Notes: generated by a model from the sequence alone, not told the origin. A stretch of DNA of 25,013 nucleotides from a virus (IMGVR_UViG_3300045988_007239:1-25013); one strand, 5' to 3'; positions 16,353 through 19,300 are shown, numbered from the stretch's first letter. Made by a program: numbers and translations.

Positions 16353-17129
16353 TTACTTGATAAATCCTGCCGCCTTTCCCCGCCTGTATTCCTCCATCAG
16401 CCACTGCGCCGGTGTTATTCCCCCAAGGGTGGCGGCGTTAGGCATACACCCGAAACTTCGCCCTGGTGGATGGTAAACGTCTCTCCCTGTGTCCGGAGGC
16501 GTACTCATGGGCTCTGGCTTTGCCTGTATGCTGATCACCGGATCCGGTATCTGCTGTCCGGAAGCCACCTTTTTCGCCCAATCATCGAGCAGCCTGCGCG
16601 CGTGTTTCTCAACCTCAATCTCGCTAAGCTGGCGCTGATACATTGCACGGCGGGTATCACATACGACCCAGTACATAACCGGATGTCGCCACGGGAATCT
16701 TTCGGGACCACCAGGATATAAACTTTTTTCCTTGCTGTACCGGTGAAACTCCGCCATCACATCGTCAATGGTGACGCCAAGAACCATCTTGCTGTCTTTA
16801 CACCACTTGATAAATTGCCCTGGCGACGGCCAGAACGGAGATTCACTGGCGCGGGCGTGGCGCATACCAGCGTTAACCTGTTCCATTGTAGTGATCCCAT
16901 TCTCCAGAAACGCAAGCATCCATTGCTTACGGAATTCATTAAGTTTGTTCTGCTCCCTTATGGTCGAAACGCTTGCAGGAAATGCAGCCTGTAACTGGAC
17001 AAATAGTTCATTGAAAATTCTAGCGACCTGCTCCTTTTTGCCATTGCTGTCACGCCGCTCTTCATGCACAGCAACACCATGCTCACGTAAGCGATCGTAC
17101 TCATTGAGAAGTTCTGGAGTTGATTTCAT
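16353..17129 (-). CDS. replication protein, lambda P-like helicase loader
   Basis: 258 aa; FPAS ... [14 protein letters not shown] ... PSPGQF matches lambda P family signature as I remember it. Confidence 0.8.
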
Positions 17130-17931
17130 CCCACACCCCTTCTATCCAGTCAGTGTTATTCCAGTCAAGCTCATCGCTTTTCCCGGCGTTTTTTGATTTT
17201 CCCCTGATATGATTTACGTGCCTGGCGAATTTTTGTTCCCACTGAACCTGCGTGAACACTTTGCCCTCAGCCATCCAGTAATCCCGGAATGCAGCAAGTT
17301 CAGCAGGTGTAAATTCCGGTTCCGGCAGGGCCGTTCCCCACAGCGCAGCACGCCGTCGAAAATCCGGCGATGGATGCCAGCCATCGGTCATCGGAAATTT
17401 CCCAATAGGTTCACTCAGGCCATCCAGAAATGCAGGTTCTGCCACCTGCAACGGCGTACCGTTCGCTTCACTGGTCGGATCACTCTCGCGCGCGTGTGCT
17501 ATGTGTGGGGTTTTATATATATCTTCCTCTTCCTCTTCCTCTGGTAACTCCTTTTGTAACGCTGTTGGCGTTACTTTTTGCGTTACTCGTTTTCGATGCT
17601 CTGCCACTCTTCTATTCGTAAGTGCACGTTTTTTCGATGATTCTCCATTATGTCGCTCAAAGTTTGGAAGAATTAGTTTGCCGTCATGATAAGCAAGCCA
17701 TCCGACGCTAATGAGGGCGTCAGCAAATCCTGTAATAAAAGCGAGTCTATCAAGTACTCCTTTTGTAACGCTGCCAGCGTTACCGTCTATTGTTTGCTGG
17801 TCAGCCCATGCCCATATACGAACCAGCTTTCCAAGAACAGCATCTGGATCAATACCCAGAATTTCTGCTATCTGAAAAATTTCAGGTTTATCAGGAGTGA
17901 TAACTTCAACCTTAATCCAGCTGCTTGCCAT
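17101..17931 (-). CDS. replication initiator (replisome organiser N-domain, DnaT-like C-domain)
   Basis: Start set at ATG 17931 ([10 protein letters not shown]..., GAGGGG RBS); poly-Glu linker; C-terminal DnaT-like region; contains nucleotide-level iteron-like repeats. Confidence 0.75.
17543..17792. repeat. candidate replication origin: iteron-like repeats inside the initiator gene
   Basis: 18-bp direct repeat actccttttgtaacgctg at 17547-17564 and 17765-17782; each carries GTAACGC-N5-GCGTTAC (17556-17574, 17774-17792), plus an extra GCGTTAC at 17580-17586. Confidence 0.45.
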
Positions 17932-18124
17932 AGGTTTCCCCTCTTGCACTCTTTAGTGCACAAGCAAATTCATTACGATGGCGGTTGGCGCTATTCATTG
18001 CACATTCAACACATGTTCCGTTCAGAACATACCTTTCAGAGAGATGGCCGTGACGGCACCGCTTTCCTGTGAAATAGCGATTTAACCCGGCTTTTGCGGC
18101 CTCCATTCTGGTTACTATCTTCAA
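17912..18124 (-). CDS. small zinc-finger protein in the cII position
   Basis: C-x-H-x-H ... C-x2-C cluster; start uncertain (TTG at 18124 with GGGGG RBS, or ATG at 18106); overlaps start of the initiator gene. Confidence 0.4.
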
Positions 18125-18203
18125 TTTTTCCGCCCCCTTTTTGTTATTGATATTGGCTATTTTGCACAATTGGAAAATTTGATCAACCAGATTTGGTTTT
18201 TTA

Positions 18204-18224: not shown

Positions 18225-18251
18225 ATATGAAAAGACCGCCGGATGGCGGTC
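18225..18251 (-). terminator. intrinsic terminator after cro-like gene (tR1-like position)
   Basis: GACCGCC-N4-GGCGGTC stem followed on the - strand by TTTTCAT. Confidence 0.55.
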
Positions 18252-18273
18252 TACAGAGGGTTGTGGCTGGATA

Positions 18274-18504
18274 TCATGAGTAGAAGAAGTATGCCAGTTC
18301 TGCTTTTGAGCGCAGCCATTGTCTTGTTTTACAGGCTTTAAAAAGCCCATTCATCAATACCTTACCTGGCATTTTGCGCTTACCTGTTAAGTGAGTCTGG
18401 ATATAGTGACTCGTCGTTCCGGCTTCCTGTGCGAAGGCTTCACGCTCATCCGGAGTAAGTGCAAGCCAGTGCTTTTTGAAATCGAAATGTCCGTTATCGC
18501 TCAT
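18274..18504 (-). CDS. Cro/YdaS-like HTH regulator
   Basis: 76-aa ORF divergent from the repressor gene; helix-turn-helix-like segment; classical cro position. Confidence 0.65.
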   Translation of the reverse strand: MSDNGHFDFKKHWLALTPDEREAFAQEAGTTSHYIQTHLTGKRKMPGKVLMNGLFKACKTRQWLRSKAELAYFFYS

Positions 18505-18658: not shown

Positions 18659-19243
18659 ATGAAAAGTATCCAGGACGTCCGCAGGCAAAATCTCAACGAC
18701 TTGATCGACCGTGAATTCAATGGTGTTCAGACGCGGATGGCAGAAAAACTTGGAACTCAGGCAAATCTGGTAAACCGCTGGGCTCTTGGCAAGAAGGTTA
18801 TCGGCGACCAGGTTGCACGAAAAATTGAAGCTGCCGCCAATAAACCCCGTAACTGGCTTGATATCGATCGCTCGCTTTCTCAGGAAGGTTTTCAGCCTGT
18901 CGGCCCGAGCGATATAGGTCAGCTGGCGGCTCACAACCTGGAACGCTGGATGAGCGAAAGCCGCGACCTTTCAACGCAGGGAAAACTACACCGCGCATCC
19001 GGCGTCGCCCAGGTGACAATCAGCCGCCTGTTAAACAATGAGGTCAGCGTTTCCATTTCCACCCTGGAGAATGTTGCATCCGCATTCGGGCGTCACGGCT
19101 ATGAATTACTGATTCACCCGCACGACCCTGCGACCATCAACTATGATCGCTCGCGCTACGCATTGTTACCCGAAACCGAGAAAGCAAAGATCGAAAGTTA
19201 CATTGAATTTGTCATCAACCAGAACGAAAAAAACAAACAATAA
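18659..19243 (+). CDS. phage repressor with two HTH (XRE-type) domains, no LexA-like peptidase domain
   Basis: 194 aa; two HTH-like segments (LGTQANLVNRWALGK and SGVAQVTISRLLNNEV); no Ser/Lys peptidase motif region; followed by a strong terminator. Confidence 0.75.
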   Translation: MKSIQDVRRQNLNDLIDREFNGVQTRMAEKLGTQANLVNRWALGKKVIGDQVARKIEAAANKPRNWLDIDRSLSQEGFQPVGPSDIGQLAAHNLERWMSESRDLSTQGKLHRASGVAQVTISRLLNNEVSVSISTLENVASAFGRHGYELLIHPHDPATINYDRSRYALLPETEKAKIESYIEFVINQNEKNKQ

Positions 19244-19263
19244 AATCATATTTTTCAGTAAGT

Positions 19264-19288
19264 AAGCCGCCTTCTGGCGGCTTTTTTA
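19264..19288 (+). terminator. intrinsic terminator after repressor gene
   Basis: GCCGCC-ttct-GGCGGC stem followed by TTTTTT. Confidence 0.7.
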
Positions 19289-19300
19289 TTGCCTATTCGA

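Follow-up and report, generated by a model that had tools for sequence, protein, structure and literature searches.

The window analyzed here is a 25,013-nucleotide stretch of viral DNA (IMGVR_UViG_3300045988_007239:1-25013) that carries a replication initiator gene on its minus strand. Two perfect 19-bp dyads of the form GTAACGC-N5-GCGTTAC lie inside this gene. They are probably initiator-binding origin elements, and segment 17511–17783 is accordingly proposed as a likely phage replication origin embedded in the initiator gene. Comparative analysis shows that the sites, an adjacent purine tract and an A/T run are under selection at the DNA level and are inherited together with the N-terminal domain (N-domain) that the same DNA encodes. 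The arrangement is best seen as a previously unreported version of the lambda-type plan, with an undescribed, non-homologous domain proposed to bind the origin, two spaced dyads and a purine-only tract.

Two dyads and a cluster of half-sites in the initiator gene

An exact 18-bp direct repeat, ACTCCTTTTGTAACGCTG, occurs twice in the gene with a start-to-start spacing of 209 bp, and the likeness extends to 28 nt at 89% identity. An earlier reading of the window, made without database searches (the sequence-only reading), had described this repeat with its copies about 218 bp apart; the repeat is present as described, and the spacing is corrected here. That reading also stated that each copy embeds the palindrome GTAACGC-N5-GCGTTAC and that the copies are read in different codon frames. 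Both statements hold: the two palindromes are perfect, the peptides read from the minus-strand gene match those given, and the frames must differ because 209 leaves a remainder of 2 on division by 3. The 9-bp flank that the two copies share (AAAAGGAGT, gene sense) was considered as part of the signal and rejected. It is not conserved beyond close relatives and is therefore taken as incidental.

When up to two mismatches are allowed, the dyad is matched twice in the 25-kb window, where 0.03 matches would be expected, and none of 100 shuffled sequences reaches two. The same two dyads are the sole matches in the whole 44.8-kb genome of Escherichia phage TL-2011b, and the dyads are also unique in a 41-kb circular Pusillimonas phage genome, again within the initiator gene. 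The half-site GCGTTAC occurs eight times in the window (2.45 expected), with five of the eight located within 17556–17783.

Site 2 is bordered by two additional half-sites, one perfect and one with a single mismatch, which the sequence-only reading had missed. The four half-sites are arranged head-head-tail-tail in a 12-bp register (GTAACGC-5-GTAACGC-5-GCGTTAC-5-GAGTTAC in gene sense), and the counterpart of the imperfect one is perfect in Klebsiella-type relatives (gene nt 381). The layout thus consists of one four-half-site cluster (17544–17586) and one isolated dyad, site 1, about 190 bp away. When 30 distinct inter-site distances are taken together, a period of 10.4 bp fits best (R = 0.37, Rayleigh p ~0.018; 10 of 2,000 random sets reach this value), a weak helical phasing of the two sites that is suggestive only.

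In some relatives, a third perfect dyad is found upstream of the initiator gene. It is located at 2170–2190 of a Rac-like prophage locus of E. coli 442/2 (L004), and at −32 relative to the start codon in L090 (also Rac-like) and in L091, −44 in Pantoea (L088) and −93 in Stenotrophomonas (L149). No upstream third dyad is present in the window. Promoter-like matches in a scan of the locus were at chance level. Plus-strand terminator-like matches at both dyads reflect the palindromes, and a T-run follows only site 2.

Conservation of the sites as DNA

Two sets of relatives were compared. For the close set, viral contigs and phage records supplied 46 unique coding sequences of the N-domain. The wide set comprises 80 genome loci from Enterobacterales, Pseudomonas, Burkholderiales, Xanthomonadales-like bacteria, Planctomycetota (Stieleria, Roseiconus, Novipirellula) and Verrucomicrobiota (Akkermansia). 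Among the close relatives, 2 of the 28 arm positions vary, against 142 of 349 positions elsewhere (Fisher p = 2e-4); at third codon positions the figures are 1 of 8 in the arms and 100 of 117 elsewhere. The spacers vary at 6 of 10 positions, with changes in the encoded residues (VT-[PRLQ][TASPIV]-AL).

Most of the 80 loci carry the same dyad at gene nt ~148 and ~337–393, with N-domain identity down to ~40%. Site 1 is at gene nt 148 in most relatives from several phyla (139–172 in a few loci) and is always read in one frame, coding for a loop of the fold. Codon usage was analyzed for the peptide GNAx[S/T/G]V[T/S], which occurs 69 times among 78 unique genes of several phyla. The codons are nearly fixed: GGT in 68/69 (background 25%), AAC in 69/69 (66%), GCT in 61/69 (21%), AGC in 54/54 (26%) and GTT in 67/69 (28%), while the first base outside the arm varies freely. 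Site 2, by contrast, is read across the family in frame 1 (28 cases), frame 0 (16) or frame 2 (5), and the resulting peptides differ widely (GNAASVT, VTPEPL, SRNERD). Nearly invariant arms with variable spacers, fixed synonymous codons and three site-2 frames all bear out the earlier proposal that the repeat is maintained as DNA and not as a protein repeat.

Several individual loci call for comment. The chromosome of Stieleria magnilauensis TBK1r contains two copies of the module (L095 and L096, at 7.98 and 8.02 Mb) about 44 kb apart, identical in N-domain sequence, dyads and linker-tract readout. Two short contigs, one of 1,551 bp labelled Streptomyces hayashii (L132) and one labelled as a Comamonadaceae metagenome-assembled genome (MAG; L124), hold Pseudomonas-type N-domain excerpts with dyads; being nearly the same as Pseudomonas loci, they are probably contamination or mis-binning. 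In a Verrucomicrobiales MAG (L142, 1501–1935), the initiator linker has an in-frame stop, which could reflect a pseudogene or a sequencing error, and a perfect dyad is still found at nt 384.

Site variants and residue 109 of the initiator

In divergent lineages, both sites share the same altered dyad and the 7-5-7 geometry is unchanged. Pseudomonas nitroreducens and its relatives have the variant GTCACGC-N5-GCGTGAC, and a Sumerlaeia MAG has GTGACGC-N5-GCGTCAC. A third variant, GTTGCGC-N5-GCGCAAC, is found in a Planctomycetales MAG and, as one copy, in an Akkermansia genome. A sequence shared by the two sites would be expected of a sequence-specific dimeric protein and would not be required of a hairpin.

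Among the columns of the N-domain alignment, residue 109 is the best predictor of the site variant. It is Val in 65 of 65 GTAACGC loci, Gln or Lys with GTCACGC, Asn with GTGACG and Met with GTTGCGC. The second-best column, residue 51, is trivial, since it is encoded by site 1 itself. The prediction was tested on a fresh set of 66 unique metagenome loci, retrieved by searching with a profile built from the variant groups. There, Val accompanies GTAA arms in 14 of the 15 loci having detectable sites, Gln or Lys accompanies GTCA arms in 28 of 31, and Met occurs with GTTG or GTTA. This link between residue 109 and the arms is what co-evolution of the N-domain and its sites would predict, with phylogenetic confounding remaining.

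A purine-only tract next to site 2

The DNA encoding the linker that follows the N-domain contains a purine-only tract of 21 nt, the longest homopurine/homopyrimidine run in the window, adjoined by a 12-nt pure A/T run; neither had been noticed in the sequence-only reading. In the window, CCAGAGGAAGAGGAAGAGGAAGAT codes for the linker peptide PEEEEEED. The conserved linker peptide of distant relatives is PEKRREEK, and its coding sequence, CCAGAGAAGAGAAGAGAAGAGAAG, has the form (GAGAA)n. Arginine in the tracts of these relatives is specified by AGA in 75 of 75 codons, against 31 of 744 elsewhere in the same genes, where AGA is the rarest Arg codon. This exclusive use of AGA argues that the tract is conserved as purine-only DNA, the peptide largely following from in-frame reading of the 5-nt repeat. 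The tract always comes after site 2, and a short stretch of A/T-rich or low-complexity sequence lies beyond it.

In the region 17500–17650, AT skew is stronger than anywhere else in the locus (−0.50 to −0.69) and GC content falls to a local minimum of 0.37. An AT-rich unwinding element and a GC-skew shift had been named beforehand as signs to look for near the repeat. The purine and A/T runs at 17511–17542, with an AT-richness weaker than that of lambda, are a candidate for the first. The second is uninformative on the origin: GC skew around the locus follows gene orientation and gives no origin signal at this scale.

Domain structure of the initiator

The N-domain contains helices at residues 16–25, 29–46, 57–64 and 69–76, a beta hairpin at residues 80–87 and a basic helix at about residues 99–119. 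The dyads sit in DNA coding for a loop (site 1) and for the start of a low-confidence linker (site 2). Residues 1–120 have no Pfam match, including Rep_3 and related families. In a direct comparison with lambda O, there is no match to PF04492 (Phage_rep_O) and the hhalign probability is 0.2%. A match to Phage_rep_org_N, found in 1 of 30 family members, is non-significant (E 0.11). The N-domain family comprises at least 4,783 clusters at 50% identity (E<=1e-10).

The C-terminal domain (C-domain) matches the DnaT structures 6aeq and 4ou6 in Foldseek, with 58% identity and target-normalised TM-scores of 0.87–0.89. Equivalence to DnaT does not extend to the full-length protein: the NCBIfam model PRK02854 reaches 93.7 bits, below its cut-off of 201, and covers residues 171–252 only, and the N-domain is unrelated. 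The 58% identity to the single-stranded DNA (ssDNA)-binding domain of enterobacterial DnaT suggests a fairly recent exchange between a host primosome gene and phage initiators. The C-terminal tail of the initiator (window 17101–17160, minus strand) resembles the end of lambda O, LDLTNTDWIYGV (blastp E 0.003, residues 213–266), a likeness that fits pairing with a P-type loader despite the DnaT-like C-domain.

Family members vary in their C-domains (DnaT-like, YdaU-C-like, DnaB_2) and in their loaders (lambda-P-like, DnaC/IstB-like). All 80 loci contain the N-domain, whereas 27 have a P-like protein and 3 have the C-domain type of the window. The neighbouring proteins of the window, namely those of an 85-residue open reading frame (ORF), of cro-like type and of cI-like type, each recur in a single locus. 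The N-domain module is the sole constant part of the neighbourhood.

A plasmid collection contained two records with the N-domain, of which one was examined as possible proof of autonomous replication and rejected. This record, NC_015459.1 (Pusillimonas sp. T7-7 'plasmid', L168), is a complete 41-kb circular genome of a temperate siphovirus, with integrase, capsid and tail genes, whose only recognisable replication genes encode this initiator and an ATP-binding loader-like protein. Because it is a phage genome, it provides no independent evidence of autonomous replication.

Organization of the locus

The features described above and the neighbouring genes are listed in Table 1.

Table 1. Features of the initiator locus, with positions counted from the first nucleotide of the window.
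Feature	Position	Strand	Remarks
Site 1, 19-bp dyad GTAACGC-TGCCA-GCGTTAC	17765..17783	.	Encodes N-domain loop G50-T56 (GNAGSVT)
Site 2, 19-bp dyad GTAACGC-TGTTG-GCGTTAC	17556..17574	.	Encodes V120-L125 (VTPTAL), right after basic helix
Extra half-site GCGTTAC	17580..17586	.	Perfect; 12 bp from site-2 arm
Extra half-site GTAACTC	17544..17550	.	1 mismatch; 12 bp from other site-2 arm
18-bp repeat, copy 1 (arm + 9-bp flank)	17547..17564	+	Exact match
18-bp repeat, copy 2	17756..17773	+	Exact match
Purine-only tract, sense strand, (GAGGAA)3-type	17522..17542	-	Encodes EEEEEED; proposed unwinding or structure-prone element
12-nt pure A/T run TTTTATATATAT	17511..17522	.	Adjoins purine tract; within the gene's most AT-rich 20-mer
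Replication initiator gene	17101..17931	-	276 residues, starts MASSWIKVE; PHROG 2509 'replication initiation protein', E 3.5e-129
N-terminal domain coding region, residues 1-120	17572..17931	-	Winged helix + basic helix; proposed origin-binding domain
Val109 codon	17605..17607	-	Beside invariant Arg108 in basic helix; candidate site-specificity residue
C-terminal DnaT-like ssDNA-binding domain, residues 179-249	17185..17397	-	PF17948, E 6.6e-19
Lambda-P-like helicase loader gene	16353..17129	-	PF06992, E 1.7e-55; PHROG 109; overlaps initiator gene end
85-residue ORF, cII position	17912-18169	-	Overlaps initiator start; PHROG 1081 (unknown function)
cro-like gene	18274-18504	-	
cI-like repressor gene	18659-19243	+	

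The window is early-region DNA from a temperate phage or prophage of E. coli. The gene order is lambdoid (cI-like, cro-like, 85-residue ORF, initiator, lambda-P-like loader), and nucleotide matches of the initiator gene reach 99% identity with Escherichia phage TL-2011b and 98% with vB_EcoP_ZX5 and HEMP4. Such phages are placed in the genus Uetakevirus by the ZX5 paper and by the related BUCT554 record. The match to PHROG 2509 is full-length, aligning initiator residues 1–268 with profile positions 1–277, and gp12 of TL-2011b, annotated 'replication initiation protein', is 99% identical to the initiator of the window.

Initiator-gene nucleotide matches were found in 382 of 5,426 complete E. 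coli genomes (~7%), where the RefSeq name of the protein is 'DnaT-like ssDNA-binding domain-containing protein'. Current records label the protein 'hypothetical', 'primosomal protein I' or 'DnaT-like' and carry no rep_origin feature, and the complete TL-2011b record likewise has none.

The 85-residue ORF has a zinc-ribbon-like CxxH...CxxC motif and a weak match to an endonuclease VII PHROG. Between this ORF and the cro-like gene, a strong terminator-like hairpin, AGACCGCCATCCGGCGGTCT, followed by a T-run, is found at 18233–18252 on the minus strand, in a position that recalls lambda tR1. Downstream of the cI-like gene, sub-threshold Rfam matches occur at 19231–19289 on the plus strand (RyhB, 24.5 bits against a gathering score of 55, E 0.16); a terminator-like hairpin is the likeliest explanation, rather than true membership of an Rfam family.

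Comparison with known replication origins

The parallel with lambda, whose origin iterons lie inside the O gene, had been drawn from the sequence alone. It holds for gene position, purine linker tract and P-like gene, and differences accompany it. Lambda (NC_001416) has four annotated iterons of 18 bp, each with internal dyad symmetry, at nt 349–433 of the O gene (within 85 bp). The O linker is encoded by the purine/A-rich tract that comes next, ACAAAAGACACTATTACAAAAGAAAAAAGAAAAGA.... A passage of PMC7466680 that cites earlier work gives two iterons plus the AT-rich region as the minimal unwinding substrate in lambda. In the window, repeated sites of 18–19 bp with internal dyad symmetry, which would be binding sites as in lambda, are likewise found in the middle of the initiator gene and selected at the DNA level, with the site-2 cluster in almost the same position (nt 345–387). 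As in lambda, a strand-asymmetric, purine- and A/T-rich tract lies directly downstream of the sites, less AT-rich than in lambda, and encodes the flexible linker between a predicted N-terminal DNA-binding domain and a C-terminal domain that would recruit the loader. The gene for a P-type loader comes directly next, and the C-terminal tails of the two initiators are similar in sequence, in keeping with a presumed initiator-loader interaction.

The differences concern the sites, the protein and the tract. Lambda has four tandem iterons (six in Stx phages), whereas the window has two dyads 209 bp apart plus two half-sites. The N-domain has no detectable homology to lambda O, and the C-domain is DnaT-like. 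Finally, the candidate unwinding tract is a purine-only microsatellite in the window, as against a 40-bp AT-rich block in lambda.

Initiators that bind repeats inside their own gene are also found in SPP1, with oriL within gene 38 (encoding the replisome organiser G38P), and in P22, with its origin within gene 18. These phages have an initiator plus helicase loader module, as does the window, but the protein families, the repeat sequences and the layout all differ from those of the window. In iteron plasmids (pPS10, F, R6K), a winged-helix Rep initiator binds repeated sites beside an unwinding element, much as a winged-helix initiator and repeated sites lie next to a candidate unwinding element here. 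Plasmid iterons are, however, tandem direct repeats outside the rep gene, whereas the sites of the window are palindromic and inside the gene.

The YdaU-YdaV region of the Rac prophage of E. coli K-12, with oriJ, has a lambdoid initiator plus loader module in the same genomic position. It was considered as an experimental anchor and rejected. The N-domain of K-12 YdaU is DUF1376, with no similarity to that of the window, and no GTAACGC dyads turned up at the K-12 ydaU region in a 9-mer repeat listing. As the N-domains differ, oriJ results are not transferable to this family. The 'Rac' variant of E. coli 442/2 (L004) does carry the N-domain type of the window, with three perfect dyads. K-12 YdaU (L085, 2620–3477) and 442/2 YdaU (L004, 1367–2155) have a common C-domain and unrelated N-domains, which amounts to a module swap at the linker.

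Proposed mechanism

The dyads would be bound by dimers of the N-domain (winged helix plus basic helix), and residue 109, in the basic helix, would read arm positions 3–4. Site 2 and the half-sites phased at 12 bp would nucleate an initiator oligomer beside the purine/AT tract; DNA looping may bring in site 1, which lies at a distance of about 20 helical turns. The purine/AT tract would then open, and the variable C-domain, here DnaT-like with a lambda-O-like tail, would recruit the P-like loader together with host DnaB, as in the O-some pathway of lambda.

A broader proposal is put forward more tentatively, and is about as open to doubt as to acceptance, if not slightly more so. The N-domain coding region and the linker tract may form a deeply conserved, self-contained origin cassette of ~400 bp, with an undescribed binding domain that lacks a Pfam family, its own two operators and a (GAGAA)n-type melting element. 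This cassette may have moved among phages of Proteobacteria, Planctomycetota and Verrucomicrobiota with near-constant 7-bp arms, and residue 109 (V, Q/K, N or M) may re-program arm positions 3–4.

Several observations weigh against placing the origin in segment 17511–17783. There are only two full sites and not a tandem array; the lambda-type form would be an array of at least four iterons at ~20–24-bp spacing. In many loci of the Pseudomonas type, the arms are degenerate (GCGTTAG) or no second site occurs at <=1 mismatch, and no dyad could be detected in a few loci of the family. At 12 nt the A/T run is short, and a GC content of 0.37 in its surroundings is only moderately low. An acidic or charged linker could constrain the purine tract at the protein level, though this would leave the exclusive use of AGA unexplained. 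The correlation with residue 109 involves few independent lineages and is confounded by phylogeny. The experimentally studied oriJ of K-12, having another N-domain, gives no support, and no description of this origin or experiment on any family member was found in the literature.

Alternative explanations

Among the alternatives to an origin, the dyads could be intragenic operators at which the initiator or another repressor mediates autoregulation by transcription block or looping, with the origin located elsewhere. We regard this as unlikely. Dyad-symmetric sites of 19 bp are typical of operators, and two sites ~20 helical turns apart suit looping repression. Autoregulation is also plausible in those relatives that have the third perfect dyad 32–93 bp upstream of the start codon, where the additional site suggests that autoregulation has been added. 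The window, however, lacks the upstream site, and the DNA-fixed purine-only tract beside site 2 has no obvious operator role. In addition, the layout matches oriLambda position for position, and the complete TL-2011b genome showed no further candidate for an origin signal. Operator and origin roles are compatible and not mutually exclusive.

It is very unlikely that the palindromes act solely as nucleic-acid hairpins, either as mRNA stem-loops or as ssDNA hairpins or cruciforms such as primosome-assembly signals, without sequence-specific binding to duplex DNA. Hairpins need complementarity and not a given sequence; yet the arms are constant across phyla, and the two sites of one genome always share their arm sequence, even after a switch. 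The symmetric arm changes of the variant lineages do keep the pairing, but single-mismatch variants (GCGTTAG, CCGTTAC, GTAACGG) break a pair, and not by way of G-U. Each dyad can fold into a stem of 7–8 bp, and the RNA fold of the site-2 region is stable (−14.3 kcal/mol, z = −4.7), to which the nested outer half-sites contribute, whereas the fold of site 1 is no better than that of shuffled sequence (z = −1.1). The DnaT-like C-domain would fit a primosome-assembly signal, DnaT being a primosome protein, but the dyads persist where the C-domain is not DnaT-like. A search of the region against Rfam gave no family match.

Another explanation holds that site 2 and the purine tract are module-boundary DNA, kept as recombination homology for the shuffling of N- and C-domains. 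A mosaic junction lies exactly here, with nucleotide matches to other phages covering only the N-half of the gene (Enterobacter and Klebsiella phages) or only the C-half (an Actinobacillus phage). Differing C-domains are joined right after the EEEE/EKRREEK tract, and YdaU of K-12 and YdaU of 442/2 have nothing but the C-domain in common. As a full account it is highly improbable: site 1, being inside the N-domain, is left unexplained, as are the dyad symmetry, the concerted switches at the two sites and the covariation with residue 109, and synonymous sites fixed across phyla need selection beyond exchange. Recombination at the junction is more likely a by-product.

That the sites bind some other trans-acting factor, a host or phage protein, appears extremely improbable. 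The identity of the binding protein is deduced, which leaves room for such a factor, but the range of hosts, from Enterobacterales, Pseudomonas and Burkholderiales to Planctomycetota and Verrucomicrobiota, together with the lineage-specific site switches, argues against a universal host factor, and none of the other phage proteins of the neighbourhood accompanies the sites as the N-domain does (80 of 80 loci, against 27 for the P-like protein and 1 each for the zinc-ribbon ORF, cro-like and cI-like proteins). Lastly, the chance of a coincidence (0.03 matches expected) or of a purely protein-level repeat of the peptide NAxSVT is negligible: although GNAxSVT is a conserved peptide of site 1 that is often seen again at site 2, both are excluded by arm conservation, the occurrence of the dyads across phyla, codons fixed well past amino-acid need, and the reading of site 2 in another frame in the window (VTPTAL) and in three frames family-wide.

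Significance

An origin within the initiator gene is the probable role of the dyads. If confirmed, it would mean that a very large group of phage and prophage initiators, found in many bacterial phyla and so far unannotated, has both an origin and a function in DNA binding. It would also be an unusually clean natural case of overlapping codes, in which protein sequence, protein-binding sites and a structural DNA tract are written in the same bases. The pairing of residue 109 with the arm bases predicts specificity swaps, which could yield orthogonal replicons; if true, it would amount to a readable protein-DNA recognition code with portable, orthogonal initiator-origin pairs. In practical terms, the segment marks sequence to keep or to target in the engineering of Uetakevirus-like and other temperate phages.

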